Virus record (IMG/VR): IMGVR_UViG_3300045988_183585
Coordinates: 1-64,000 of that record
Direction: 5' to 3' (one strand)
Source of the DNA: a virus
DNA length: 64,000 bases
A model generated the notes under the pieces. That model did no database searches. It saw nothing but the letters and a program-made list of their open reading frames with translations, and was not told where the DNA came from. Made by a program: the position numbers and the translations under genes. Below, one piece after another: positions 19,398-63,799 of the stretch. The number at the start of each line of letters is the position of its first letter. Positions within the stretch are counted from its first letter, which is position 1.

Positions 19398-19486
19398 GGA
19401 GAGATGGCTGAGTGGTCGAAAGCACCGGCCTTGAAATCCGGCGATGTCAAAAGCATCCGTGGGTTCGAATCCCACTCTCTCCGCCA
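19398..19486 (+). tRNA. tRNA-Ser (anticodon UGA), long variable arm, encoded CCA
   Basis: GGAGAGA acceptor stem pairs with TCTCTCC. Anticodon loop is CTTGAAA. T-arm is GTGGGTTCGAATCCCAC. 3' end is GCCA. Confidence 0.85.
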
Positions 19487-28835: not shown

Positions 28836-30320
28836 TCAGGCAGGGATAAAAACCATGCCAACATTCTTTGCGAGAAGCGCACATCTCTTTGTTAAAACCC
28901 TTGCTCCTTTCGTAGAATTGTAATAGTTCGGTGTACCATTGTTCCGTCCTGATGAGCCCTGAAAGACGCCAACAGCCCCATCAAAATCCATCACCGCACC
29001 CGGCATGATACGAGCCATGTCCTTGTACTGGGGCGAGTGGGGCCTTACGGTGAGCTGCGATACCGCAGCGTCGCCGTAAGCCTCGCGGAACTCCTCCAGA
29101 CTATCGGACTTTTGCTCAATGGCCTTATGCCGGTTTGCTGCAACGACCTTGCCATCCAGAAGGTACTTCCGGTCAACCATTTGGCGGATGCAGGATTGCC
29201 GGTCGTGCCGACGGAACTGCTTCAGCTTAAAGGGTTCGACAGGTGTGGAGACCGTCGTATCCGCATCCAAAATGGAACACGCAACACAGTAGGCATCCGT
29301 GTAATGTTCTTTCGGCACGTTCTTGGCAATACGGAAGCCCTTGGTGGACTTACCATCCGTGGCATAGACATCGTAGGGAGTCTCTTCACCGAGGTACTCC
29401 ATCAGGAACGGGATAATCTGATTTAACACACTCAGGGCGTGGTACTTTTTATTCATACCGCCCTTGCTTGTGACCAGCTTCTCCGCCCACGCCTTGTCCT
29501 TGTGGACGAGGGCGTGATGCCTCTCGCAAAGCCCGCACCGGTTTGCCAGCGTCTCGCTTCCACCCTTATGGCGTGGAACAACGTGGTGATAATGGTCAAT
29601 GGGCTTCTTGCAGAACAGGCAATGTCCGTCCTGCTGTGCGTACACCGCATCCTCCACGGAACCCAGTCCGCACAGCGGACCCTGCTGGTATTCCCACCGA
29701 CGGATATTGGGATTATCCATCGCCATGAAAGCAAAGCGGTTTAGCTCCACTACCACCTTTGTGATGGGTAGAACCTTTGCAATCTTCGCAATCAGGTTAA
29801 TGTGGGTCTGCAGCAGGTGATTTGCTGTAGGTGTCAACCAACCCGCAGGGCGGCTGCGGTTGTTGAACCGCGCCTCCTTATTGCGGATATGGTGGCACAC
29901 AATGGGTGTACTGTATCCGGGGAGCAATCTCTCGACAGAACCCTCGGCGATAGTGGTTCCTGCAGCCTTCGCACGACGCTGACGCTTCCTGCGCCGGTCC
30001 AGCGTACGATGGTTTCTCCGAAACGCAGCACGCTTCTTCATCAAGAGAGGTACTTCCTTGTTGCGAGTCTCCAGATGTGCGGAGAACACGCACTGGCCGT
30101 CCTCCTTGACGACAGCAACGCCGATATTCGTCCTGCCGGGGTCGATGCCAAGAATCAGGTCTTGGGTAACATCAGGGGTATCATAGTTCAACTGGATGGT
30201 AAACGGGGTAGTGCAAACAACTCGTGCTTTCTTCTCCTTCAGGAGAAGGCGCACATAGCAATAGCGAGTTGTCGGCATCAAAGGTTTACCGTCTTTGTTT
30301 TGCACATAGACCATTGTCAT
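28836..30320 (-). CDS. iscB: IscB RNA-guided nuclease (PLMP domain, split RuvC with inserted HNH)
   Basis: GKPLMPT (PLMP domain). LGIDPGRTNIGVAV (RuvC-I). R-rich bridge helix RRNHRTLDRRRKRQRR. HNH CLFCKKPIDHYHHVVP..N..CGLCERHH. VVVELN (RuvC-II). HYTDAYCVA (RuvC-III). Confidence 0.9.
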   Translation of the reverse strand: MTMVYVQNKDGKPLMPTTRYCYVRLLLKEKKARVVCTTPFTIQLNYDTPDVTQDLILGIDPGRTNIGVAVVKEDGQCVFSAHLETRNKEVPLLMKKRAAFRRNHRTLDRRRKRQRRAKAAGTTIAEGSVERLLPGYSTPIVCHHIRNKEARFNNRSRPAGWLTPTANHLLQTHINLIAKIAKVLPITKVVVELNRFAFMAMDNPNIRRWEYQQGPLCGLGSVEDAVYAQQDGHCLFCKKPIDHYHHVVPRHKGGSETLANRCGLCERHHALVHKDKAWAEKLVTSKGGMNKKYHALSVLNQIIPFLMEYLGEETPYDVYATDGKSTKGFRIAKNVPKEHYTDAYCVACSILDADTTVSTPVEPFKLKQFRRHDRQSCIRQMVDRKYLLDGKVVAANRHKAIEQKSDSLEEFREAYGDAAVSQLTVRPHSPQYKDMARIMPGAVMDFDGAVGVFQGSSGRNNGTPNYYNSTKGARVLTKRCALLAKNVGMVFIPA

Positions 30321-30503: not shown

Positions 30504-31574
30504 TCAAATCTTAAATAGCCCTCGGACGGTATAGGTGAACGGAGCTACCCCATCATCCGAACTCTTATCCCACGATTCCTTGATTTCGTTGATGGGTACA
30601 CCTGCCACACGACGCCAAGCGACGTCATCGGCGAAACCATCAATCATCGGGATGTCCTCCAGAAGCGCATCAAGCGCACCGCCTTGGCGCAAGTCAATGT
30701 ACTTCGGATTGAGCATAACTGCTCCCTCAGAGAGCAGCATACGCGCCCAGAGCTGGTATTCCAGCGACCAACGGGACGTTTCCGTCGGCAGGTCGCCATA
30801 CAGCTCATCCAGTTTCCGCAGGATGGAAGCGCAAATCACACAACCTTCAGGATGTCCGTGATGCGTACCGAGATACGGCAGCTTTGCAAAGAACAGAGGA
30901 TTCCCAGAATACTCATCTTCCGCATAGGCGTAAAACGTCAGCTTCATGTCAGCCGCCGCGAAGAACCGGTCAGGAAGGATGTCCTTCACTTTGCAGTTGC
31001 TCCAGACGACATCATCCGAAAGGAATCTGAAGCCGAGAGGCTCCGTTCTTTCCGGTGTGAGGTACTTCCACGCCATATGGCGAACGAGGGCAACGAGCCC
31101 CAGCTCATGCCGCAGCGTCGGCACATCGTCAAAGATTCTGCGGATGTTTGCCCGCAGCTTCTCTTCGCTTCGTTCCACGCACTCGAAAAAGAGCTTACAG
31201 GACGACCCGTTCGTGAACACAACGCTCAGTGTCACGAGCCAAGGTGCGAAATCATCAGGCTTCAGAACATACTCTTTCTGCCCAGTACAGGCGACCGGCA
31301 CAAACCAACCACCCGCACGAGTTTCGCTATACGAAGCGTCCTCCGCAGCATAGGCGGTTGTTCTGAAGGCATCGTCGGTGTCCTTATCAGGAATATCAAT
31401 GGTATCGCCCTTGCAGATATACTTGAAGGGGACATACATTTCCACCTCTCTAATGCCGTCGCCATCTGCATCATCCGTATCACGGCAGTAACGCACGATA
31501 TGGACCAATACGTTCTCGTCGCAGTGCAGCTTTCGCTTATTCGAAATCAGATTATCCATGTTTTCTCCTTTCAC
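30504..31574 (-). CDS. hypothetical protein, paralog A of a tandem pair
   Basis: Shares PLFFAKLPxLG..PEG..LxKLDExYGDLPxxTxxWxLEYQLWARMLLxEGAVMLNPK with the next gene. Its last ~4 codons and stop lie inside the IscB left inverted repeat. Confidence 0.6.
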   Translation of the reverse strand: MKGENMDNLISNKRKLHCDENVLVHIVRYCRDTDDADGDGIREVEMYVPFKYICKGDTIDIPDKDTDDAFRTTAYAAEDASYSETRAGGWFVPVACTGQKEYVLKPDDFAPWLVTLSVVFTNGSSCKLFFECVERSEEKLRANIRRIFDDVPTLRHELGLVALVRHMAWKYLTPERTEPLGFRFLSDDVVWSNCKVKDILPDRFFAAADMKLTFYAYAEDEYSGNPLFFAKLPYLGTHHGHPEGCVICASILRKLDELYGDLPTETSRWSLEYQLWARMLLSEGAVMLNPKYIDLRQGGALDALLEDIPMIDGFADDVAWRRVAGVPINEIKESWDKSSDDGVAPFTYTVRGLFKI

Positions 31575-31576
31575 CT

Positions 31577-32614
31577 TCAGCCAGTTACGATGCAGGTAAA
31601 AGCCTCATCGCCGGACTCACTCATGTCATTCTCCCACGCCTCGGCGATTACGCTGATAGGTGTTTTGACAGCCTTTGCCCACGCAATACCGTCACCGCTG
31701 TCTTTCAGCATTTTATTACCGAATGCCAGCGTTATGAATTCGTAGGAGCAGTCGGGGAGGTCGAGGTGCTTCGGATTCAGCATGACCGCACCTTCTGCCA
31801 GCAGCATACGAGCCCAAAGTTGATACTCCAGTGCCCATTTTTCTGTGTCTTCAGGCAGGTCGCCGTACATCTCGTCCAGCTTCTGCAGCAGTTCTGCGAT
31901 TGCAGCACGTCCCTCAGGCTTGTTGTACCGTTCGCCCAAATCGGGCAGTTTGGCAAAGAACAGTGGGGACGCTGAATACTCGCCGTCGGAATAGGCGAAG
32001 AACGTCAGCTCCATGGCAGGGGAATTGAAGAACTTCTCAGAAAGAATGTCCTTCACACCGCACTGGGTGAAGTTTACGCTGTCCGAAATGAGGCGGAAGC
32101 CGAACTGCTCCGTCCACTCGCGGGTAAGGTCTCTCTTTGCCATGGCTGCAACTATGCCGGAATGCCGTCCGCAGGTGTTTTTCGGCTCAACACGCGGCTC
32201 AAATCTCGCCCGCATATTGTTGACGATAGCTTCAGTATCGTTGAGGACACTCTCAAAAAGCAGCCGGCAGCCGCGCCACGCTCCTTCGTCGGTGACGGAA
32301 AGGCTGATGATGTAGGGGGCAAAATCGGCGGGATGGAGAACCATTACCGTCTTGCCGCCGTCCTCAGTGACCTTCACAGACCAACCGCACTCGTTCCCGT
32401 ATCGCTCGTTCTTCTTGAACGAAGCATTTGTGAGAACGGAAAAGTGCAGCTCGTGACCATCGCTGAAGACGCTCACAGAATCGCTCTTGCGGATGTCCTT
32501 GAAAGGAACGAAGGTGGTCTCGAATCTGTCGTACTTAGGGTTGTGGCGGTAGACCTTAACCAACGTGTTCTCGTTGCAGAAGGATGCAGCGGCTCTGATA
32601 GATGTATTACCCAT
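31577..32614 (-). CDS. hypothetical protein, paralog B of the tandem pair
   Basis: See paralog A. It ends ..FTCIVTG, whereas A ends ..FTYTVRGLFKI. Confidence 0.6.
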   Translation of the reverse strand: MGNTSIRAAASFCNENTLVKVYRHNPKYDRFETTFVPFKDIRKSDSVSVFSDGHELHFSVLTNASFKKNERYGNECGWSVKVTEDGGKTVMVLHPADFAPYIISLSVTDEGAWRGCRLLFESVLNDTEAIVNNMRARFEPRVEPKNTCGRHSGIVAAMAKRDLTREWTEQFGFRLISDSVNFTQCGVKDILSEKFFNSPAMELTFFAYSDGEYSASPLFFAKLPDLGERYNKPEGRAAIAELLQKLDEMYGDLPEDTEKWALEYQLWARMLLAEGAVMLNPKHLDLPDCSYEFITLAFGNKMLKDSGDGIAWAKAVKTPISVIAEAWENDMSESGDEAFTCIVTG

Positions 32615-33293: not shown

Positions 33294-33935
33294 TTACTCC
33301 ACCTCGCTCTTTTCCAGCTCGGAAAGGTTGTCGCATTCAAATCCGCAGGTCATGCAGTGATATGAACCGTAGGGGTCAGACGACTCGTAGATGTTAGATT
33401 CGATTTCGTCGTTGATATTTCCGAGGAAATCTCCCGTTTCGATGTCAACCAACACATCAATGTGGAGGACCTGATGACCGGAGAAGGATACGCCGCCACA
33501 GTTGGGGCAGCAGCGGGTATATGCCTTCTGCTCCCGCTCTGATGTACCAGATTCGATGTCTTCAAACGCTTCGGCAAGCGTGAGAAGCATCTCGTCGATT
33601 TCCTTAGCGTCATCGACAAGAATCGACAGCTTCGGAACGCCGGACTCACCTCTCATAGAAGCCTCTGCGAACAGTCCAACGTGTTCGTCGATGTCAAAGT
33701 CATCGTAGACACGGCGCACCGCAGCAGCCACACCGTCGCTGAAGTCATCGTCGGCGTACAGGTCGAAGGAATAGTCCTCGCCGGCAGGCGACCCCTGCCT
33801 GAAGGTGAATACTCCGCAAACCTTGTTCTCGTCGATGACCCAGCCCAGTGCTTCTGCCTTTTCGCGGTAGTTGGACGGAATCAGGTCAGGAACGCTGGTC
33901 TCGACCTCCGCAGCGTTTTTTTGGTTATTCTCCAT
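33294..33935 (-). CDS. acidic hypothetical protein with two zinc-ribbon motifs
   Basis: Start at MENNQKN, with a GAAAGGAGAACAAATC RBS. CCPNCGG and CMTCGFEC. Confidence 0.55.
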   Translation of the reverse strand: MENNQKNAAEVETSVPDLIPSNYREKAEALGWVIDENKVCGVFTFRQGSPAGEDYSFDLYADDDFSDGVAAAVRRVYDDFDIDEHVGLFAEASMRGESGVPKLSILVDDAKEIDEMLLTLAEAFEDIESGTSEREQKAYTRCCPNCGGVSFSGHQVLHIDVLVDIETGDFLGNINDEIESNIYESSDPYGSYHCMTCGFECDNLSELEKSEVE

Positions 33936-35822: not shown

Positions 35823-36001
35823 GGTGTTTCTCCTTTCTTTGTTGTCGAAAAATGCAATAAATATATAAAAAAAGACAGCTACCCCAAGATTGGGATAACT
35901 GTCTGAATTTATGTGGTGACTTGGAAAACGGAGATAATCTCCTTTATAAAAATAGCTTCGTAATTATAATTCTATACTACCACAGTTTGATATTTTGTCA
36001 A
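35823..36001 (-). promoter_or_regulatory. reiterated promoter-leader cassette, copy B (lacks the CCCGTAAGTCC segment)
   Basis: Same TTGACA/TAGTAT promoter, palindrome and covarying hairpin as copy A. Confidence 0.6.
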
Positions 36002-36050
36002 TCGTTTTAGGTATCAAATTGCGTTTACTCTATTTGCACTGTTTTTTGAT

Positions 36051-36164
36051 TTTAGTCGGGATTTCCGAATTTTCAAATTGCAATTTTAGTCGGGAAATCA
36101 GAGTTTTAAGAACTAAACTTTAGTCGGGAAAAACCGAATAAAAATTTGAGATTTTAGTCGGGAG
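36051..36164. repeat. four direct repeats (iteron-like) of TTTAGTCGGGA at ~34-bp spacing
   Basis: tttagtcggga begins at ~36051, 36085, 36119 and 36154. These lie immediately upstream (on the minus strand) of promoter copy B. A half-copy ttttagtcg abuts promoter copy D at ~46702. Confidence 0.6.
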
Positions 36165-36255
36165 AACAGGAACAAACATAGTCCATGAAAACCGCATAAC
36201 CAAGCCATTTTCGAGCGTTTTCTTTCTTTCAAATTCAGCGAAAATTGAGAAAAAA

Positions 36256-36284
36256 AGAAAAGCCCCCGAAGGAGCTTTTCTTAG
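36256..36284 (-). terminator. intrinsic terminator ending unit C
   Basis: gaaaagcccc cgaa ggagcttttc followed by a long T-run on the minus strand. Confidence 0.55.
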
Positions 36285-36316: not shown

Positions 36317-37723
36317 TCAGGAAAGATGCTCACCCATGAACTTGGCAAAATCATCCCAGAATCCGAAAAAACGATTGCGGATAAGAGTGGGGCGATTGCC
36401 GGCAGTGATATGTCCATCGGTTTCTTCGGCATTCAAGATGCCCCAGAGCTTAACAAGCAGCAGCTTGTACTCAGCGCTCTTTAGAACGATGTGCTGGTCC
36501 TCAACCATATTGTCCCAAAGAGTCCGCAACATCTCACGGTCCTTTGCCTTGGCAAAATCAGCCGTTCGGCAGTACAGCCAAATGGTCTTGAAGTCCCAGA
36601 AGGCTTCACTTTCCGATGACTCCTCCTTGGAGGTATTCTTGCCGCCAGTGACTTCCTGCTTCTTGCCATCGACATCAATGACAACGCCAGTATCGGAGTT
36701 ACGTGCAATAGCATGGATACGCAAGTCCTCGATGAGATTGGTCAGCGCCAAATTCAGGAGCACGTTCCAGTAGCCGTTCATGCTCATGGAAGAAAACCGA
36801 CTAAAGTCTCTGTCATGGATGATTTCAGGGATAGCTTCGACGAGGCAGTGCAGATTCCCCAGCCGCGAAGAGACGCGGTTGAAATCCGCAACGTCCATGG
36901 CAAACAGGTCGCCCTCGTAACCGAGTGCCTTCGCCAGACCGCCAGAGACCTCGTAGTGCTTCTCCACGTGGATGAGGTCGTCCCCATCGTCATCCTCGCC
37001 GGCACTGTCATCCGTGCCTAAATCGGTGAAGAAAGCAACGACTCCCTCAGGAGTCCACGAGTGTGTCGCATCCTCCCGAAGCGCGTTGAATACCCGAACA
37101 GCCAGATTGTTGTTGCCCTCACACACGGCGAGAATCTCGTTCCATGTGTACGAGGCAAACGGTGCCACGCTGCAGTCCTTTCCGGTGATGTAGCAGACCA
37201 AATCAGGGAAGGTCGCCGCATTGTAGACATTGATGTAGCCGTTCAGCCACTTTCCGTCTTTACCAAACGGCTTACCATCCTTTTTACTGCAGATGCCCAT
37301 GACCAGCAGGAGGTGAAGCTCCAGCATAGACAACGGAATGAGCTTCTCTTTGGTCTGATGCAGCCGTTCACGGATATAGAGCTCCGCCAGTTCCGTGGCA
37401 GTCACATTCACGACAGAGCCCTTCTCAGCCTCGGCAAAGAAAACGTCGCTCGCCCCGGAAGTAGGCAGCACGTAGCAGCGTTCTTTTACATAGGCCCGAA
37501 AAACGTTGTCATAAATCTTGATGCCCTTCTTCTTTTTTTCGTCGCTCTCAACCGGAACGAACCGGCAGGACATTTGCCCGAAAACATCATTCTGCATGAT
37601 GTCCTCGTAAGCCTTTGCGAAGTCGATGAGGTCGCCATCCACCACGATACGGTGGTCGCCTTCCATCTTTTCCAGTCCCTTTTCAGGAAATCCAAATAGG
37701 GAGTTGTAGCAAAACTGATTCAT
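36317..37723 (-). CDS. hypothetical protein
   Basis: Start at MNQFCYN, with a GAAAGGAGAAAAAAAGA RBS. Confidence 0.6.
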   Translation of the reverse strand: MNQFCYNSLFGFPEKGLEKMEGDHRIVVDGDLIDFAKAYEDIMQNDVFGQMSCRFVPVESDEKKKKGIKIYDNVFRAYVKERCYVLPTSGASDVFFAEAEKGSVVNVTATELAELYIRERLHQTKEKLIPLSMLELHLLLVMGICSKKDGKPFGKDGKWLNGYINVYNAATFPDLVCYITGKDCSVAPFASYTWNEILAVCEGNNNLAVRVFNALREDATHSWTPEGVVAFFTDLGTDDSAGEDDDGDDLIHVEKHYEVSGGLAKALGYEGDLFAMDVADFNRVSSRLGNLHCLVEAIPEIIHDRDFSRFSSMSMNGYWNVLLNLALTNLIEDLRIHAIARNSDTGVVIDVDGKKQEVTGGKNTSKEESSESEAFWDFKTIWLYCRTADFAKAKDREMLRTLWDNMVEDQHIVLKSAEYKLLLVKLWGILNAEETDGHITAGNRPTLIRNRFFGFWDDFAKFMGEHLS

Positions 37724-46497: not shown

Positions 46498-46698
46498 TTG
46501 TTTCTCCTTTCTCCCTGCCTGTAATAAGGACTTACGGGAACTCAAAATGTATGAAAATATATAAAAAAGACAGCTACCCCAAGATTGGGATAACTGTCTG
46601 AATTTACGTATGGTGACTTGGAAAACGGAGATAATCTCCTTTATAAAAATAGCTTCGTAATTATAATTCTATACTACCACAGTTTGATATTTTGTCAA
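46498..46698 (-). promoter_or_regulatory. reiterated promoter-leader cassette, copy D
   Basis: Near-identical to copies B and H. Confidence 0.6.
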
Positions 46699-46716
46699 TC
46701 GTTTTAGTCGAAAAGA

Positions 46717-48855: not shown

Positions 48856-49899
48856 TTAATGCCGTTTTCGGTCTTCCACAATCGCAGAAAGTGTCTCATC
48901 AATCGGTAGCTGAATCACTTTCCCTGACAGCGGTCCGTCTTCGTCCACGCAGCGAACCACAATAGGATAGGTGCGTGCGTTGGGCTGGATGCCGATGATA
49001 ATATAATCATGGTCAACCACAGAAAAAAATTCCCGGTACGCAATGTCGATACCTCTCCATGTAAGCCAGTGTTGGATGTGTGACTTATTTCTGTAAAAAG
49101 CAGCCTCCTCGTCTCGTTCCTTTTCCAGAGCCAGCGCATCCTTGTCTTCATACTCTTGCTCATAGAGGATTTCGGACATCTTCTCACGGAGAATACGAAC
49201 TTCCTTGTGGTCAGACCCGTTTCCGATGCGCCGCCCGACGACATATTTCTCCGGGCGGTATTTATCGGCGGCGGCAAGTTCGTATTCGTACCGTCCCATT
49301 TTGAACACGATACCGAAATCACTCGGCTTCAACTTGCGCTTAGTTGGAACATTCTGCTGTAGGTCAGCGAGGCAAGCACAGAAGGCATCCCATTCGAATT
49401 TCTCGGTGGGAATACTTTCGTCATCGTAGTGGGATGTACGGTAAAACCGACACTCGAACTCATCTGCCAGCCCCACCGTCTTGCCAGCAAATCCTCTCGC
49501 TTGGGGGAGTTGCCTTTCAGTAACACGGACCGTGTCTCTCGACAAAACGACAGACCTCGTACCAAACTGTGATGCAACGTGCTGAATACATGGGAGCACA
49601 TCACGGAGAATAAGCTCGCGGCACACCTGTGAGCAGTAGGATTTATCCACTACAACACGGATTAAGACGACAACAGCGTTGTTGCCGACCTTCTTAATGC
49701 GGGCACTGTCTTGACGCTTAACATTGAAGCGACCTGTGCCGAAGGGGTCTTTACAACAGTATTCCTTGTCCTTCAGCGCTTCCTCCACGGAGTCCAGCAG
49801 CATATCACGAATCTGTTTGTCCATACCTTTTTCAAAAGGGATGGTCAGGTTGTCGTCGCTCCAGTTTCCGGACTTGTTGATGAGGGTTTGTGTATCCAT
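48856..49899 (-). CDS. P-family paralog 6 (uncharacterised; YCCKDPFG / IPTEKFEWDAFC / YREFF motifs)
   Basis: See the paralog-array finding. Confidence 0.65.
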   Translation of the reverse strand: MDTQTLINKSGNWSDDNLTIPFEKGMDKQIRDMLLDSVEEALKDKEYCCKDPFGTGRFNVKRQDSARIKKVGNNAVVVLIRVVVDKSYCSQVCRELILRDVLPCIQHVASQFGTRSVVLSRDTVRVTERQLPQARGFAGKTVGLADEFECRFYRTSHYDDESIPTEKFEWDAFCACLADLQQNVPTKRKLKPSDFGIVFKMGRYEYELAAADKYRPEKYVVGRRIGNGSDHKEVRILREKMSEILYEQEYEDKDALALEKERDEEAAFYRNKSHIQHWLTWRGIDIAYREFFSVVDHDYIIIGIQPNARTYPIVVRCVDEDGPLSGKVIQLPIDETLSAIVEDRKRH

Positions 49900-50016
49900 G
49901 TTTTTTTCTCCTTTCTTCTTTTTTACGGAAGTTCAGTCGGCGATGAACGCTGCTCTGTCCAAACCGCACAGGGCAGGGCGGGGGGAGAGGCAAAGCCTCC
50001 CCCGCTGCTTGATACT

Positions 50017-51135
50017 TCAGCCCGTTTCCCGCGCCTGTGCAACGTAGTCCAGAAGCTCCCAGCCAAAGGGAAAGACGTGCCCGCAATCGGGGCTTCCATC
50101 CTCAATACAAACAGCAGAAAATTTCCGCGTTCGTCCGTTGGGATAAATGGCCGTAAGCATAAAGCTCTTTCCGCTGACATCGAAAATCTCTTTGTACGAG
50201 AGGGTTTTAATGCCTGCAGCGGCCAGTTCATTGTCAACGAGAGGTACATTCTTGAGGAATGCCTCCTCCTCATCTTTCGCTGTTTCCACGGCGATGGTTT
50301 CTTCGTCCTTTCCTTCCTGCTCAAAGAGGGCCTTTTCTACATCCACCCGAAACAGGCTTTCCTCCTCGCCGGCTTTTTCGCCGGTCTCGCGTCTCACCAA
50401 AACGCGGGTGAATGGAGTTTCAGCGTCTACGCCAATAATGCGGACTGTTGCGTCGTTTCCCGTGCCCAGTGGGTACTGGAACGCCTTACCGAAATCCTCT
50501 GCGAGAAGGTCTCGCTTTGGCTTCTCGCCCTGCTTGCGGGCGGCGGCACAAAGTTCATCCTGCCGCTGCAAACGCACACAACGGCAGTACGAATCCCAGA
50601 TGATTTTATCGTTGGGAACCATACTGCTGTTCGCATAGACCGAGTGGAAGAACCTCACAGAGAACCAGTATGGTTGAGGTTCACTTTGGTTTCCGCTTTG
50701 AGCCGAGATGCCAAAGATTCTTCCGTCTGACGTACGAATACTGTTCGGCTTCACTGTGTAGCGAGCAGACCAGCGAGACGCAACACTCGACACGACCGGT
50801 TCAAATTCGGACATGATATAGTCTCGAAAAAGACCGCTCAGGCGCAGGACTTGCCCTCGTTTCTCGTTCAGCAGCAGGCCCACCACAAACTCTGTAAAGT
50901 ACGGACTTGCGGCTTCGTTAGGAACCAGCTTGCAAAAACGTGAAGGAGGTGTACCACAGCGCCTTACGCCGAAAGGGTCTCCATCACAAAAATAGTCGTC
51001 AGAGAACTTCTTTGTAATGGAATCAATGAGGTCGTCGTGCAAATTTTCTGCTACGGAATCGTGGGCACAGTAAGTGTCGTTTTTCAGAAAAGGACTCTGC
51101 ATTACTGTATCCAGCTTTTGACTGAATGCGCTCAT
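50017..51135 (-). CDS. P-family paralog 5
   Basis: Start at MSAFSQKL after the cassette RBS. YFCDGDPFG, VPNDKIIWDSYC, EEAFLKN, YKEIF, FGWELL. Confidence 0.65.
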   Translation of the reverse strand: MSAFSQKLDTVMQSPFLKNDTYCAHDSVAENLHDDLIDSITKKFSDDYFCDGDPFGVRRCGTPPSRFCKLVPNEAASPYFTEFVVGLLLNEKRGQVLRLSGLFRDYIMSEFEPVVSSVASRWSARYTVKPNSIRTSDGRIFGISAQSGNQSEPQPYWFSVRFFHSVYANSSMVPNDKIIWDSYCRCVRLQRQDELCAAARKQGEKPKRDLLAEDFGKAFQYPLGTGNDATVRIIGVDAETPFTRVLVRRETGEKAGEEESLFRVDVEKALFEQEGKDEETIAVETAKDEEEAFLKNVPLVDNELAAAGIKTLSYKEIFDVSGKSFMLTAIYPNGRTRKFSAVCIEDGSPDCGHVFPFGWELLDYVAQARETG

Positions 51136-51340
51136 ATAACAAAATCGTCTCCTTTCCCCCTGCCTCAGATAAGGACTTATGGGAACATAAAATATATAAA
51201 AAATATAAAAAAAGACAGCCACCCAAGATTGGGGTAACTGTCTGAATTTACGTATGGTGACTTGAAACGGAGATACTCTCCTTTATAATAATAGCTTCGT
51301 AATTATAATTCTATACTACCACAGTTTGATATTTTGTCAA
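51136..51340 (-). promoter_or_regulatory. reiterated promoter-leader cassette, copy F
   Basis: Slightly diverged copy. The palindrome is GGAGAtACTCTCC. Confidence 0.55.
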
Positions 51341-51366
51341 TGATTTCAGGCAAAAGAAAAGCGCCC

Positions 51367-51390
51367 GTAGGGGCGCTTTTCGGTCGTAAG
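51367..51390 (-). terminator. intrinsic terminator ending unit G
   Basis: aaagcgccc gtag gggcgcttt. Confidence 0.6.
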
Positions 51391-51400
51391 GTCTCTCCTT

Positions 51401-52489
51401 TCAGGCGGGAAATCTGTGTGCGCTGATAATGCGGAGCAGCTCCCAGCCAAAGGTCTTTTTGTGAGCCTTTTCCTTCCCCTCATCATCGTCAAGACAAATG
51501 GCCGTGAAGACGTGCTTTCGTGCCTTGGGGTGGATGGCGGTGATGACATAGCTGCAGCCGCAGAAGTCGAACATCTCACGGTAGACGATGTCGATGCCTT
51601 CCTCGTCGAGTCGGCGTTGTATGACCTGCTTGTTCTTGTAGAACATAGCCTCCTCTTCCTTGCCTGACTCAATATGCTGGTCAGCAGCCATGCTGTCCTC
51701 AATATCACGCAGAATCTCTTCCACGCGGTTGAAAGGCCATTCAACGGTCTTGCCGGGTTCCTTGCCGTCCATCTGGCGGAGGGATACTCCGATGGGGAGG
51801 CTATTTTTGTCGATGCCCTCGATACAGTAGGTCGTTTCAATATAAGAGAACAACCTGCCGTAATCGGAATACTTCAGTTTATAGACCGGCTGCATGATAG
51901 CTTTATCCGCTTTGTGAAGCCTGAAGTGTTCCTCCCTCTGCCGGCAGAAGGCATCCCAGATGATTTTGGAATCAGGAATATCCTTGTCGGCATAGTAGGA
52001 TGTCCGATAGAAGGCAAAGGAAAACTTTGCAACATAGGTTTTCTCGACTCGCGGCAAAGAATCAGGCTTTTCATTTGAGTAGACGCTCTTCGACATACTG
52101 GCCCAGTCCGGCTGAATACGTGGTACAGTACCCAGCACCTGTTTCGGTGCAAATACACGAGCACTGTGCTTCGCCGCAGCCTGCTTCGCAGCAGCCATGA
52201 CATCATTATACATATCCGTCCAACAGAGCTTCATCCCACGCTTATTATCTGCGAAGAGCATATTGTTGAGGCAGATTGCAAGCGATACATGGGTGATGGT
52301 TGCGGCTCCGCCGGATACGTAGCAAATGTTGATGCGGCGGTTGCCACAGCGAGCCTCGCCAAAGGGGTCCTTGCAACAGTAATCCTTGTCCTTCAGCGCT
52401 TCATAGACGTAGTTGCATAGTGTCGTACAGAGGGATGAACCCTCTGTGCGTCCTATGTCGGCTGCGGTGTCAATGGTTTTCAAATCCAT
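51401..52489 (-). CDS. P-family paralog 4
   Basis: YCCKDPFG, IPDSKIIWDAFC, EEAMFYKNK, YREMF, FGWELL. Confidence 0.65.
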   Translation of the reverse strand: MDLKTIDTAADIGRTEGSSLCTTLCNYVYEALKDKDYCCKDPFGEARCGNRRINICYVSGGAATITHVSLAICLNNMLFADNKRGMKLCWTDMYNDVMAAAKQAAAKHSARVFAPKQVLGTVPRIQPDWASMSKSVYSNEKPDSLPRVEKTYVAKFSFAFYRTSYYADKDIPDSKIIWDAFCRQREEHFRLHKADKAIMQPVYKLKYSDYGRLFSYIETTYCIEGIDKNSLPIGVSLRQMDGKEPGKTVEWPFNRVEEILRDIEDSMAADQHIESGKEEEAMFYKNKQVIQRRLDEEGIDIVYREMFDFCGCSYVITAIHPKARKHVFTAICLDDDEGKEKAHKKTFGWELLRIISAHRFPA

Positions 52490-52510
52490 AGCTTTCTCCT
52501 TTCTTTGTTT

Positions 52511-53548
52511 TTAAGCTCCCCGACCGCTGCGGTCGGCGATGATTCTGTCGATGACCTCTTTATACATGAACATGACCTTATCACCGACAGCTTTGCCTTC
52601 CTCGTCCTCAACACAAATAGCGGTGAAGACATAGAGACTTTGTGCATTCGGCGTGATAGCGGTCAAGGCGTAGGTACGCTTGGCGTACTGGAACATTTCA
52701 CGATACATGAGGTCTACACCGTCACGGGCGAGGGCAGCTTTAATGCAGTCCTTGCCTTCGTAAAAATCAGCTTCCTCGTCCTTCGCAGCTTTCAGCTTTC
52801 GTGCGGGTATGTCGGCATCATCATCAAAAAGAGGCCTCCGAAGATTTGTCAACGGAACCACGATGATGCCTTCGTCTCCTGTACTTCCCGCAGGCTGCAG
52901 TCGCACGTCCAAATAACTGAACTCGTCCGCAAAGCCAACAATACGATACATGGCACCCTCATAGAGAAACTCACGCTCATAATCGGTTGCTTTTAGCGGA
53001 TAGAAAGGCATATGAGGAGGGCCGCTGGTGCGTCCTTTTTCATCTTCAATATCCTCTTGCAATCGCAGGCATCGGGCATCCCAGACGATTTTCTCATCAG
53101 GTACGTTGGGGTTGTTGTGGTACGGCGTCCGGATGAACTCGATACCGAACACCGCAAACCTGAATCTCCGTCCAGCGCCATTGCGCTTTGTTCCGAACGA
53201 CGGCTTTTGTACGAAAATTCGCGCCTTATACGTCTCCGCCACATACCACAAAGCCGCCTTAATATCATCGCGCATCTCACCAACACATGACTCAACGTAC
53301 TTGTGATTGTCTGCGTCTACGATGAGGTTGAGTGTGACTTCTGTGATATTAGCTTTTTCGTACGATACCTTGCACGGGTGGGGAAGGTCGGGGTCATTTC
53401 CGTAGCGTTCTTTTCCGAAGGGGTCTTTACAGCAATAGGCCTGTCCCTTCACATTGAACTCAACAACCTGTTTGATGAACTCACAGAGCCCATTCTTGCT
53501 GGTGATTGTTCCCGCACCAACGGTGGTGTCAAGTGTGTGCAGGTTCAT
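52511..53548 (-). CDS. P-family paralog 3
   Basis: YCCKDPFGKERYG, VPDEKIVWDARC, EEADFYEGK, YREMF. Confidence 0.65.
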   Translation of the reverse strand: MNLHTLDTTVGAGTITSKNGLCEFIKQVVEFNVKGQAYCCKDPFGKERYGNDPDLPHPCKVSYEKANITEVTLNLIVDADNHKYVESCVGEMRDDIKAALWYVAETYKARIFVQKPSFGTKRNGAGRRFRFAVFGIEFIRTPYHNNPNVPDEKIVWDARCLRLQEDIEDEKGRTSGPPHMPFYPLKATDYEREFLYEGAMYRIVGFADEFSYLDVRLQPAGSTGDEGIIVVPLTNLRRPLFDDDADIPARKLKAAKDEEADFYEGKDCIKAALARDGVDLMYREMFQYAKRTYALTAITPNAQSLYVFTAICVEDEEGKAVGDKVMFMYKEVIDRIIADRSGRGA

Positions 53549-53565
53549 AGCTTTTCTCCTTTCTT

Positions 53566-54585
53566 TCAGCGTTTTCCTCCATCGCGTTCGGCACGAATCG
53601 CCTCAATGACATCTCCAAACGAGAAGAACAGGACATCATCAAAGGTTTCACCGGATTCATCCACACGGACAGCACCGAAGATATCCTTTACTTTGGTGGG
53701 TATGATGCCGACCAGTGCGTAGGTCAAGCCATCAAGCTCAAACATCTCACGATACATCACGTCCACGCCAACACGGTCCAGTAGAGCTTGGATGTGCTTC
53801 TTATTTTCATAAAAAGCAGTTTCCGTCTCCCTTGAAACACTGACATTCTGCATTTCTGCAAGGTACAGGGCGTGTTCAACGAGGGACAAAGATACCTCCA
53901 TGGTATCGCCTTTATCTTGACCGTCTACACCTTGCACGAGTACCTCGTCCATGCTGTTTTCACCCATTCCGATGATACGATACAGGGAGCCTCCGAGAAG
54001 GAACACTCGCCCGAAATCGGAATTTTGAATGGTGTAATCAGTTTTCTGGCCGGCAGCAAATCGCGTATCCCGAATCTTACCGCAGCGTTTACACCAAATG
54101 TCTCTGTTGGCATCCCAGATGATTTTCTCATCAGGAATGCCGGTATCCTTGGCGTAGGGCGTTGATATGATGTAGACGTATAATGCGGCTGATTGGAATA
54201 AGGCGCCTGAACGAGCACCCATTGCCGCAGAGCAAAACGGCTGCTTCTTGATGATAGCTCGTGCCGAGTGCTTGCTTGCAATAGGTTTTATTGCAGCGCT
54301 TACGTCCCTCAGAATGGCCGCAGCCACGTCACGAGGCAGCGGGTTTATTCCGTAGCCGCCATCCAACGCAATGTTGATGACCAACTTTAAGATGTTGTAC
54401 TCCTTACCGAAGACATAACACATATCCCCAGCATCAGCACCGTAGCGCCTTTTACCGAACGGGTCTTGTCCACAATAGGTCTTGTTCCGAAGAGTGTATT
54501 CAAGCCCTGTGCGAATGTCTGTCAACAGCAAATCGGAGTCGATTTGTTCAGCACCGTATGCGGTGTCCAGAGCATCTAAATCCAT
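53566..54585 (-). CDS. P-family paralog 2
   Basis: YCGQDPFGKRRYG, IPDEKIIWDA, ETAFYENK, YREMF. Confidence 0.65.
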   Translation of the reverse strand: MDLDALDTAYGAEQIDSDLLLTDIRTGLEYTLRNKTYCGQDPFGKRRYGADAGDMCYVFGKEYNILKLVINIALDGGYGINPLPRDVAAAILRDVSAAIKPIASKHSARAIIKKQPFCSAAMGARSGALFQSAALYVYIISTPYAKDTGIPDEKIIWDANRDIWCKRCGKIRDTRFAAGQKTDYTIQNSDFGRVFLLGGSLYRIIGMGENSMDEVLVQGVDGQDKGDTMEVSLSLVEHALYLAEMQNVSVSRETETAFYENKKHIQALLDRVGVDVMYREMFELDGLTYALVGIIPTKVKDIFGAVRVDESGETFDDVLFFSFGDVIEAIRAERDGGKR

Positions 54586-54697
54586 AGCTTTCTCCTTTCT
54601 TTTTTGCTTTCAGCAGGTCAGGCAGCGACACACACTGCTGCACCGCCGTCCGAACCGCGCAGGACAGGGGAGAGGCAGTACCCCTCCCGTGCCTGAG

Positions 54698-55882
54698 TCA
54701 ATCAGGGTCCCTGCATTCCGCCATGAGTTCGATGAGGTCCCACCCGAAAAGAACACGGTGTCCATATTCGGGGGAGTCTGCATCACAGCAGACAGCACCA
54801 AAGATGTTTGTCCGTGCATCCGGAAAGATTTCGGTAAGCACAAAACTTGTACCGAGCGTATCGAAAATCTCTCTGTAGGTTACATCGAGCTCTTTCCACG
54901 CTTCAAGCATTTCAGCCCAAGACGACATACTCGTCTGCCGTGAGTGGGCCATGCGTTTTGTGAGACTTATTTTGTTCTTGTAAAACAAAGCCTCCTCATC
55001 TTTAGCCTTCAGCACCGTCAGCACTGTTTTGTCTTCGAAGTCATCTTCGTAAAGTGCAAGTTCAATGTCCTTAGCCCTCACATCTACCTTTTTGCCAGCG
55101 TTTTTCCCCTTGACGTATTCGAGTACGACGGAGGAATTGGGCTTCTCATGGTTGATGCTGAGAATCCGGACAATGGGGCTGCGAGGTTTCCCCGGCTTGA
55201 GGGGGAATTCACGACCGAAGTCCGCTGCACACAGCTCGTGCTTCGGAAGCGACTCTTTGCTTACTCTCCGGTCAACCATTGCCTTTCGACAGTAGGCATC
55301 CCAAAAGATTTTCTCGTCTGGAATCTCCGGATTGTCGAAATACGTCGAGTGGGCGAAGGTGAAATCAAAGTGAAAGAGGGGAAATGCAGCTCCATTAAGG
55401 GTGAACCGTCGTTTCTCTCTGCCTTTCACAAAGCAACGTGCTGACCACTGTTCAGCGGCTACCTTTACGGCCCGTTCCAACTTTTCCTGCAGTTCGTCTA
55501 TAAACGTCGGCTGCGGGGCCCCCATCTGTGACAGCTTTTCGAGAAGCGGTGACAGCTTTTCGAGAAGCAAGATGTTCACAGAATAGTGTGTGAGATAGAA
55601 GCATTCATCGTCATCGGAGACTTTGATGTCTGCCAGCGCATCAGGAAAATCACTTCCGTAGGATACATAAGTCTCTGTTGTCCGGCAGAATGTAGTTGGG
55701 TCAATACCCAAACGCTTCACTCCAAAGGGGTCTCCCTCACAGTCAGGTTCATTGCTGAACGCCTTTTGGACGACATCAATGATTGTGTCACGGATATTCT
55801 CCATGATGATAGCATTGGCGTGATACTTTTCGTGCTTGAGGATAGGTCTTGGAACCATCGTGTCAATGGCACGCAAATCCAT
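54698..55882 (-). CDS. P-family paralog 1, first gene of unit G
   Basis: DCEGDPFGVKRLG, IPDEKIFWDAYC, EEALFYKNK, YREIF, FGWDLI. Confidence 0.65.
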   Translation of the reverse strand: MDLRAIDTMVPRPILKHEKYHANAIIMENIRDTIIDVVQKAFSNEPDCEGDPFGVKRLGIDPTTFCRTTETYVSYGSDFPDALADIKVSDDDECFYLTHYSVNILLLEKLSPLLEKLSQMGAPQPTFIDELQEKLERAVKVAAEQWSARCFVKGREKRRFTLNGAAFPLFHFDFTFAHSTYFDNPEIPDEKIFWDAYCRKAMVDRRVSKESLPKHELCAADFGREFPLKPGKPRSPIVRILSINHEKPNSSVVLEYVKGKNAGKKVDVRAKDIELALYEDDFEDKTVLTVLKAKDEEALFYKNKISLTKRMAHSRQTSMSSWAEMLEAWKELDVTYREIFDTLGTSFVLTEIFPDARTNIFGAVCCDADSPEYGHRVLFGWDLIELMAECRDPD

Positions 55883-62368: not shown

Positions 62369-62549
62369 AGTTCATTTCTCCTTTCTTTTTCTTGTAAAAT
62401 GTATGAAAATATATAAAAAAAGACAGCCATCCCGAAAATGGGATAACTGTCTTGATTACGTATGGTGACTTGGAAACGGAGATAATCTCCTTTATAAAAA
62501 TAGCTTCGTAATTATACTTCTATACTACCACAGTTTGATATTTTGTCAA
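62369..62549 (-). promoter_or_regulatory. reiterated promoter-leader cassette, copy I (short form like copy B)
   Basis: Hairpin agacagttatcccattttcgggatggctgtct, with compensatory changes. Confidence 0.6.
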
Positions 62550-62605: not shown

Positions 62606-63799
62606 TTAACTGTTTTTCAACTCGTACTCATACTGCGATACCCAGCAGTCGCAAAGTGCGTCAGAGATGATTTCATCTCTCTCTTCGCCGTTTTCGACCA
62701 TCAAAAGGGCAGACAGCGTTTTCCTTGCATTATCATCCAACTTTACTTCTTTTGTCCGCTTTTCTGCGTCCGGCGTGTTTGTTCTGACCAGAATGGTGTT
62801 ATATCTTGTGTAGTCAGGTGCTACAAAATAGTCTACCGCCATATTGAGCCCGATACTCAGTATCATCAGATTTCCAGTCGTTCCAAGCGGTTCTTTTTCC
62901 TCTTTTTTCTTCTTTTTGGGTTTCAAAGGTTCTCCAGCAATATCACAGAAAATAGCTTTGTCCGCTGCAGCAATCGCCTCGTTGGTAACATTGTAACATC
63001 TGTCAGAATAAATACGAAGCTGAGAATTCGCTTCTGTTCCGAATAGGGTTACTGCGGTGGAACAATCGTCTTCCATCTTTTCTTTCAAACGTTTTATATA
63101 CAATTCTTGGAAATCGACCGGAGCACCTTTGCTGTTTCTATAAACAAAATTGTTTTCTTTGAAACCATCCGCTGTACCCTTTATCATATAACGGTCTTTT
63201 GCTTCGCAGTTAGCCTGAATTTCCGACTGAATTTCGCGTGATTCGGCATAAGGCATAGCTGAAATTTGAGTAAACAGACAGGAATAGATGTTTGGCAGGT
63301 GGATGGGCGCACATTCATCGCCGAACAGAACTTTTTCACATGACCTATCTAAGAAAAAGTACGCCAATTTATACAAGCCCTCAACAGAGACATAAAATCC
63401 TTCCGGTGCTTTTCTGTTTACCTGTTTTCCTGCATCTATTCCGTTGATTAAAAGTTCATACGGACCAACGACCGTAGGAGTTCCTTCATCCGGTTCCCTG
63501 AGTCGTGTCATCTTCGATTCATTTACGCCGATTTCTGTCGCAAGGCCTCTCATATTCCACGAACCATATAGACGAGGGGCTTTAGTGATGGAATACAACT
63601 CCTCATAAACTCTTGCGGAAACAAGTCTGCGAACATTTGTCAGCTCCGTGCTAAACTCAGTATAGTTTTCATACGTCGAATTCCGAGGTATTCGGTTAGT
63701 GGAATTTAACTCACTATTATAAGAATAACGAGTATTCAAGGTCTCAGCCCATTTTTCGCAGTCGATGTAGGCGTCCATTGTATTATTTATTCTTTTCAA
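62606..63799 (-). CDS. hypothetical protein, markedly lower GC than the rest of the island
   Basis: 397-aa ORF in an AT-rich stretch. No recognisable motifs. Confidence 0.55.
   Translation of the reverse strand: MKRINNTMDAYIDCEKWAETLNTRYSYNSELNSTNRIPRNSTYENYTEFSTELTNVRRLVSARVYEELYSITKAPRLYGSWNMRGLATEIGVNESKMTRLREPDEGTPTVVGPYELLINGIDAGKQVNRKAPEGFYVSVEGLYKLAYFFLDRSCEKVLFGDECAPIHLPNIYSCLFTQISAMPYAESREIQSEIQANCEAKDRYMIKGTADGFKENNFVYRNSKGAPVDFQELYIKRLKEKMEDDCSTAVTLFGTEANSQLRIYSDRCYNVTNEAIAAADKAIFCDIAGEPLKPKKKKKEEKEPLGTTGNLMILSIGLNMAVDYFVAPDYTRYNTILVRTNTPDAEKRTKEVKLDDNARKTLSALLMVENGEERDEIISDALCDCWVSQYEYELKNS

Follow-up and report, generated by a model that had tools for sequence, protein, structure and literature searches.

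A short motif, repeated four times at a phasing of 34 bp, stands in front of only one of the at least 17 otherwise nearly identical promoter-leader cassettes of a large human-gut element, and it is identical in sequence to part of the operators in iscR promoters. The repeat is genuine, under constraint and confined to a single place in the element. With evenly balanced confidence we propose that the array offers phased docking sites for a regulator of the Rrf2/IscR type, which would give one of at least 17 operons its own control; both the binding protein and the regulatory outcome are what we infer for the array. Docking of a regulator is a more likely role than that of replication-origin iterons.

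The array in its genomic setting

The window, i.e., the whole stretch of 64 kb that was analysed, is part of a 173-kb human-gut metagenome scaffold with close relatives among IMG/VR contigs of 181-192 kb and fragments. The element, which we regard as conjugative-type, encodes a type IA topoisomerase resembling those that are carried chiefly by conjugative plasmids. Other recognisable genes are a TQ/SpaA surface adhesin, an HD-domain protein, a pair of AAA_5 and VWA proteins, Fic, DUF4942, DUF4314, MazEF and two XRE-type HTH (XRE/HTH_3) proteins, while a relative carries RecD2- and RecG-like helicases, a large serine recombinase and DUF3846. Phage structural genes were not seen, and DNA similarity to known phages or plasmids was not found. 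Most proteins of the element are orphans, and Pfam, PHROGs, NCBIfam, a PDB sequence search, exhaustive HMMER and one AlphaFold run yielded nothing usable on the function of the proteins neighbouring the array. An RRXRR (HNH-type) endonuclease gene (28836-30320) belongs to a different operon in the relative L006 (L006:7848-9332) and thus behaves as a mobile gene. Insertions in relatives comprise an IS605-type TnpB (L011:3588-4706) and interruptions of the gene for a 468-aa protein (L008, L067). Six tandem paralogous genes of 339-401 aa with 24-33% mutual identity (48856-55882) and a separate pair of 345 and 351 aa, 41% identical (30504-32614), have no detectable family; both sets may be diversified anti-defence or establishment genes.

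The minus strand encodes all genes between 19.9 and 64 kb. The only switch of gene orientation and GC skew in the window is at about 19.5 kb, where a plus-strand block (adhesin, topoisomerase, nuclease, flotillin) runs towards the long minus-strand block, with a tRNA-Ser(TGA) gene (19398-19486) exactly at their meeting point. A promoter-plus-leader cassette of about 150-200 nt, nearly invariant over about 110 nt, is present in eight copies in the window (-35 boxes on the minus strand at 62549, 59472, 56082, 51340, 46698, 42082, 36001 and 28693) and in at least 17 copies per related element, all co-directional over about 92 kb. It is composed of TTGACA, 16 nt, a TG-extended TAGTAT and a leader with hairpin and U-run, followed by the ribosome-binding site. 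The strong hairpin and the U7 just ahead of the ribosome-binding site resemble a terminator within the 5' UTR, which suggests conditional read-through or antitermination. TTATCCC, possibly by coincidence the heptamer of the Reg576 operators of plasmid p576, occurs in the arms of the hairpin. Almost every cassette begins 15-27 nt past the terminator of the preceding operon (38 distinct copies, window and relatives). The clearest exception is the copy at 36001, where an insert of 250 bp, which contains a 35-nt block and the four repeats, parts terminator and -35 box; the other exception concerns copies in L023, L026 and L039, which adjoin a gene transcribed divergently and apparently open the series. 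The location given in the initial annotation, between the terminator of one unit (36282-36255) and the -35 box of the next (36001-35996), is correct. The features are listed below in the order of transcription, the last being a promoter elsewhere in the window; scores and ranks refer to the half-site matrix described further below.

36317-37723, minus strand: gene of the 468-aa orphan protein, last of the upstream operon, its end 150 nt from the array
36255-36282, minus strand: intrinsic terminator of the upstream operon, a 12-bp stem followed by a T-run, conserved in relatives
36183-36217, minus strand: conserved 35-nt block, CGCTCGAAAATGGCTTGGTTATGCGGTTTTCATGG, with a weak inverted repeat GAAAAY-N14-GTTTTC
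36153-36163, minus strand: core r1, farthest from the promoter, exactly TCCCGACTAAA; 15-mer TCTCCCGACTAAAAT, 15.0 bits, rank 6; invariant in six haplotypes
36119-36129, minus strand: core r2, exact; 15-mer TTTCCCGACTAAAGT, 16.7 bits, rank 4; invariant in relatives
36085-36095, minus strand: core r3, exact; 15-mer TTTCCCGACTAAAAT, 19.1 bits, rank 2; invariant in relatives
36051-36061, minus strand: core r4, nearest to the promoter, exact; 15-mer AATCCCGACTAAAAT, 20.8 bits, rank 1; invariant in relatives
36049-36076, minus strand: candidate second promoter P2, hypothetical; TTGAAA, 16 nt, TAAAAT, 10 of 12 consensus positions
36001-35974, minus strand: cassette promoter P1, one of eight near-identical copies, from their alignment and a promoter scan; -35 TTGACA (36001-35996), 16-nt spacer, TG-extended -10 TAGTAT (35979-35974)
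35873-35904, minus strand: 5' leader hairpin and U-run of the downstream operon (RNA fold z = -3.8), context outside the array
35822-30504, minus strand: genes of the downstream operon, served by the cassette promoter at 36001
46691-46715, minus strand: promoter of cassette copy D with CGACTAAAA; GACT-N7-TTGACA register as in Clostridial iscR operators, 17 of 25 Clostridial-operator positions

Exactly four copies of TTTAGTCGGGA were detected in the window on both strands with up to one mismatch allowed. They start at 36051, 36085, 36119 and 36153 (plus-strand coordinates), at intervals of exactly 34/34/34 bp, which bears out the four direct repeats at about 34-bp phasing that had been noticed before. 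Their spacing had been described as about three helical turns, an approximation only: 34 bp correspond to 3.24 turns of B-DNA, thus each site is turned by about 86 degrees against the next, and the sites do not share one face of the helix. On the gene strand (minus) the core of 11 bases reads TCCCGACTAAA(AT), and the conserved unit comprises 13 nt, ATTTTAGTCGGGA, from which copy 3 departs at one position. Among the four units 12 of 13 core columns are invariant, against none of 21 spacer columns, and the spacers of 21-23 bp are mutually unrelated. This sharp boundary between a perfect core and a scrambled spacer favours selection on the core over a young tandem duplication. The array is the sole equally phased repeat of the window. 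Three or more equally spaced copies of any 8-mer were obtained in none of 200 second-order Markov simulations of the window; together with the exact-match scan these simulations rule out a chance occurrence.

In related elements of about 180-190 kb the array occurs once per element and always in four copies. The search for the motif elsewhere that the initial annotation had called for found none beyond the four, at up to one mismatch, either within the window or across about 600 kb of related loci. Across six haplotypes none of the 44 core columns varied, compared to 41 of 196 other intergenic columns (one-sided Fisher p = 1e-4) and 9 of 69 columns of the spacers within the array (p = 0.009); since the relatives are close and differ by few substitutions, these statistics are supportive, not overwhelming. 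The spacing of 34/34/34 is kept in most relatives and is 34/34/33 in L067, a companion contig of L008 and, at about 84% protein identity, the most distant relative detected. An apparent loss of the array in L008 was an artefact of the mobile insertion in the 468-aa gene, as the array is present on L067. Among the six haplotypes 1 of the 35 columns of the 35-nt block varied, whereas of the 32 columns immediately upstream of it about half did; a T-to-C change in L067 improves the pairing of its inverted repeat.

Single-strand structure in the array region did not exceed that of shuffled sequences (folding z = +0.57). This fits the recognition of duplex DNA and argues against a single-strand origin or promoter. 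A structured RNA or single-stranded DNA element was also rejected for want of an Rfam match and of excess folding, and a CCGA/UCGG pairing of core and spacer is broken in one haplotype. Several other candidates were discarded. The start codon of a small ORF across the array (ATG at about 36210) is gone in L067. Against tandem sigma-A promoters with the core as -10, positions 12-13 of the would-be hexamer vary whereas the upstream TCCCGAC is invariant. The strand bias of TCCCGAC is common to its sub-words and reflects codon usage rather than a Chi-like or strand-skewed motif.

Core r4 starts 60 nt upstream of the -35 box of the cassette promoter, and the cores do not overlap the -35 and -10 of that promoter. 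They do overlap the consensus-level P2, the -10 of which is inside r4 and the -35 of which sits 6 nt downstream of r3. P2 is kept in L067, but its -10 is lost in the L006 haplotype, where it reads TAAAAA; P2 is therefore doubtful. The half-site that had been reported to abut the -35 of cassette copy D is real: CGACTAAAA (46710-46702) ends 3 nt upstream of it. The diverged relative L008 does not have this half-site at the corresponding promoter, hence it is probably non-functional.

Likeness to IscR and Rrf2 operators

An unbiased metagenome scan for two cores 20-26 nt apart retrieved nine stretches, two of them the element itself. One match, L072, is the promoter of a gene for an Rrf2-family regulator, with a cysteine desulfurase gene next in line. 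Two perfect 34-bp units are present in this promoter; each contains TCCCGACTAAAATACTTGACA and reads TCCCGACTAAAAT-AC-TTGACA. The matches L068, L069, L073 and L075 were palindromic REP-like or microsatellite repeats and were dismissed as unrelated, as were motif pairs of the same kinds in four reference genomes (Myxococcota, Saprospirales, Lewinellaceae, Lishizhenia). A 178-aa ORF of the human-gut contig OQKD01000050 carries at its 3' end (L070:7117-7170) an uninterrupted tandem run of five to six 11-bp units of TCCCGACTAAA, probably a chance microsatellite. On an unrelated low-GC contig (Ga0256845_1051360, L074:17-60) two solo TATCCCGACTAAAATT are arranged as a direct repeat 33 bp apart; the product of the downstream gene reads, judged from its sequence, as an AAA-type ATPase.

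Homologues of the L072 Rrf2 protein were fetched by protein similarity alone, and all of them are located in Rrf2-IscS(-IscU) operons. In L081, a Clostridiales MAG with an Rrf2 protein 73% identical, the 25-mer ATTCCCGACTAAAATACTTGACATT lies over the -35 box and is identical to that of L072, with TATCCCGACCAAATAACTCGGGAAA as a second, palindromic site. Three other Clostridial lineages carry AATTCCGAGTAWWTTACTTGACATT. The iscR promoter of E. coli K-12 presents ATACCCGACTAAATCAGTCAAGTAA and then ATAGTTGACCAATTTACTCGGGAAT, which we take to be the footprinted IscR sites A and B; site A is ATACCCGACTAAATC, and the 10-mer CCCGACTAAA of the array is identical in it. The 13-mer of the array is identical to that in the iscR promoters of L081 and L072. 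Rrf2-iscSU operons with an operator of the array type exist in Clostridiales, but TTCCGAGTA is used instead in three of five Clostridial lineages, and the iscR operator variant of the host itself may differ. The published consensus of IscR type-1 sites is ATASYYGACTRWWWYAGTCRRSTAT (PMC6599224). In terms of the IscR/Rrf2 operator, the array core equals the left half-site (TCCCGA) and the left part of the 9-bp centre (CTAAA). All four cores match the conserved half-site plus centre ATASYYGACTRWWW; the array has TCCCGACTAAA(AT) where E. coli has ATACCCGACTAAAT and Clostridiales have ATTCCCGACTAAAAT.

A 15-nt matrix was built from eight independent operator half-sites, with the array and L072 excluded. 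It ranked the four cores 1st, 2nd, 4th and 6th of the 128,000 positions on both strands of the window. Their scores of 15.0-20.8 bits compare to a median maximum of about 13 bits in 20 shuffled windows. Isolated half-site-like matches on the plus strand within genes, which may be due to chance since such scores arise in some shuffled windows, were AAAACCGACTAAAGTCTC at 36793-36810 (inverted relative to the array and 635 bp off), ATTTCCGACTGAATT at 63219-63233 (17.5 bits) and ATTTCCGAGGAAATC at 33417-33431 (16 bits).

The likeness ends at the second half of the operator. The dyad partner expected from TCCCGA-N9-TCGGGA had 0-1 of 6 matches in all four units, and the whole 25-mers agreed with the operator consensus in 14-16 of 25 positions; other full IscR-type sites in the window were matched at background level only. 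As the right half-sites are missing, the array consists of solo half-sites in direct repeat, whereas Rrf2 dimers normally require dyad symmetry. Such an arrangement is unusual and, on the sequence, weakens membership in the strict type-1 operators. The position differs as well: relative to the start presumed for the cassette promoter, the cores are situated at about -89 to -191, while characterised type-1 repressor sites overlap the -35 or the -10. A further difference to iscR promoters is the location on a mobile element for which searches of the window, of a further 51 kb from a relative and of related IMG/VR contigs yielded no Rrf2 gene. In common with the type-1 operators of E. coli and P. 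aeruginosa (sites A and B) and of the Clostridial Rrf2-iscS-iscU operons, the array has tandem sites by a promoter, and in the isc promoters such tandem sites bind IscR cooperatively (PMC6599224).

A precedent for single half-sites is the Rrf2 protein RsrR of Streptomyces venezuelae, which in vivo is present at hundreds of half-site targets, termed 'class 2' (PMC5015018). In these targets, as in the array, only one repeat of the inverted pair is recognisable, but they are single sites scattered on the chromosome in contrast to a phased array. They were bound in vivo and in vitro, artificial half-sites however only weakly (PMC5015018).

Direct-orientation solo half-sites misfit a symmetric Rrf2 dimer, a point in favour of another candidate explanation, which we rate as rather unlikely but not negligible: a different, element-encoded protein binds the array as a private operator or centromere-like site, and the IscR likeness is coincidence or mimicry. 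An XRE/HTH_3 protein, a small orphan of the downstream operon or a partition or handcuffing adaptor would be conceivable binders. Constant-spacing direct repeats with free spacers are typical of sites for ribbon-helix-helix, winged-helix and ParR/TubR-type proteins, the 43-bp repeats of F sopC being an example. The confinement of the motif to a single locus is what an autoregulatory or maintenance site should show, and nearly all flanking proteins are orphans. Against this explanation, no ParA, ParM, TubZ, ParB, Rep or ribbon-helix-helix family was detected in the 64-kb window and 51 kb of the relative; the predicted structure of a 101-aa neighbour was uninformative (pLDDT 54). Moreover, four coincidental matches of 15-21 bits to an independent IscR half-site matrix are improbable, and the array 13-mer recurs in genuine iscR promoters.

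The layout of the element, with the cassette at many co-directional operons, resembles the multi-operon establishment regulon described for the Bacillus plasmid p576 (PMC8708921). Both p576 and the element described here are mobile elements of Firmicutes in which several operons are under copies of one strong sigma-A promoter (PMC8708921). The Reg576 operators are direct repeats (PMC8708921); in the EGeRS2 promoters with their Reg576 'dual motif' operators, repressor-bound short direct repeats are positioned just upstream of the -35, comparable to the array, and one promoter copy is wired differently in both systems (PMC8708921). However, the Reg576 operators are 7-bp repeats 2 bp apart at every promoter copy, with a plasmid-encoded ribbon-helix-helix protein as binder (PMC8708921), in contrast to an array at one copy only, with 34-bp spacing and no known element-encoded binder.

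The 34-bp interval is common to the array, to L072, where two operators of a Clostridial iscR promoter are separated by it, and to L040. In the latter (IMGVR_UViG_3300030040_000294, about 165.2 kb; L040:1649-1725) three ACTTGACAA, which are -35 boxes, are phased at exactly 34 bp; the last one serves as -35 for the promoter in front of a RecG-like helicase gene. By eye, this L040 array follows just downstream of a stretch resembling structured-RNA or tRNA-type genes. The array might alternatively be a relic: an IscR-controlled promoter would have been duplicated in tandem in units of 34 bp, the upstream copies would have decayed, and the array would have no function now. L072 presents an intact 34-bp duplication of operator and -35, L040 the three phased -35 boxes in a related element, and the proximal part of the cassette promoter (CCTAAAACGATTGACA) resembles operator centre plus -35. 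But neutral decay would not spare 11-12 contiguous columns in all four units while every spacer column changed, nor does it agree with 0 of 44 core columns varying across haplotypes. A relic is therefore regarded as improbable.

Replication and partition

Phased direct repeats, a feature of iteron origins, are present with four copies at 34 bp, and origin iterons had been proposed as one of two functions of the array. In such an origin, an unrecognised initiator, e.g., the adjacent 468-aa orphan, would bind the array for initiation or copy-number control. The intergenic region with the four regular direct repeats is AT-rich (67%) and immediately follows a large orphan gene, and iteron sets downstream of rep genes are known, e.g., incA of P1 and incC of F. 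A distant relative of the element, L066, has repeats similar to iterons. It is related via a 34%-identical homologue of a 259-aa protein, and about 13 direct repeats of 30-33 bp (L066:270-690, Logan SRR25429213) with the core CCTATGTCGCAAAYRGTC and pyrimidine-rich spacers are situated upstream of unidirectional genes; from their sequence they look like iterons or a centromere.

The surroundings of the array do not agree with an origin. A perfect DnaA box is absent from the window, near-matches do not cluster at the array, and a single box with one mismatch (36376) is within 2 kb. AT-only runs beside the array do not exceed 11 nt, and a distinct unwinding element was not found. Between 20 and 64 kb the cumulative GC skew declines monotonically, with no turn at 36 kb, and the genes to the left and right of the array point in the same direction. 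The 468-aa protein has near-identical relatives only and matched no Rep, winged-helix or other family in Pfam, NCBIfam, PHROGs, PDB or exhaustive HMMER. No Rep family was detected within about 36 kb on one side and about 78 kb on the other (window plus 51 kb of the relative). Classical iterons have 17-22 bp and a spacing of about 22 bp; the array has a core of 11-13 bp, shorter than theirs, at the longer spacing of 34 bp, and a copy number fixed at four in every relative. With the iterons and centromeres of plasmids (R6K, F, P1, pPS10; F sopC) the array shares phased direct repeats, a conserved core and one locus per replicon, but it lacks adjacent rep or par genes, DnaA boxes, an unwinding element and an inflection of the skew. 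Origin iterons are hence unsupported and in our estimate very improbable, whereas the other function proposed initially, an array of regulator sites, is supported by its constrained cores, the identity with an IscR/Rrf2 half-site and the absence of single-strand structure.

For a partition centromere no ParA, ParM, TubZ, ParB or ParR family was detected in the window and the related 51 kb. Walker-A motifs were confined to unrelated large proteins. Actin- or tubulin-like partition proteins were sought among the 345-, 351- and 468-aa proteins; reading revealed no motifs, and BLASTP returned only the paralogy of the 345- and 351-aa proteins.

Proposed control of a single operon

In the proposed regulation an Rrf2-family protein of the IscR/CymR type would bind to double-stranded DNA at four candidate sites. 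As no Rrf2 gene was found on the element, the regulator is most likely encoded by the Clostridial host. Control of plasmid-borne genes by IscR has been observed in Yersinia (PMC4055776). Each 34-bp unit would offer one perfect half-site with the operator centre, (W)WTCCCGACTAAAAT; the DNA that comes next is AT-rich and not conserved. The 25-bp footprint of an Rrf2 dimer plus a 9-bp linker would allow up to four dimers abreast between terminator and promoter. Type-1 sites are bound by holo-IscR, thus the occupancy would track the Fe-S, cysteine or redox state of the host.

Occupancy could lead to a separate control of the single operon 35822-30504 by three routes. The cassette promoter may be modulated from upstream. 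Alternatively, the weak second promoter overlapping r3 and r4 may be occluded, the classical geometry of a repressor, although this P2 is doubtful. As a third route, bound protein may act as a roadblock or insulator against read-through out of the upstream operon.

A more far-reaching version, which we consider quite unlikely, extends this regulation to a distinct operator architecture of half-site direct repeats about 33-34 bp apart. Rrf2 proteins would form a phased multi-dimer filament, and a conjugative megaplasmid-like element would employ it to insulate two of its many identically promoted establishment operons from each other, or as a roadblock between them, in response to Fe-S or redox state. 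Instances of the direct-repeat layout at about 33-34 bp are the array with four and L074 with two solo half-sites, and L072 with full sites. By such a filament or insulator the element would eavesdrop on the physiology of its host without a sensor of its own.

For the annotation of the element the array is unfit as evidence for a replication origin, and a tempting mis-annotation is thereby removed. If docking of an Rrf2/IscR-type regulator is true, a large and almost wholly unannotated gut element would wire one operon to the iron-sulfur or cysteine regulator of its host, and phased solo half-sites would be an operator layout undescribed for Rrf2 proteins. The array would then provide a handle on the sensing of the host state by 'dark-matter' elements and on the reading of half-sites by Rrf2 proteins.
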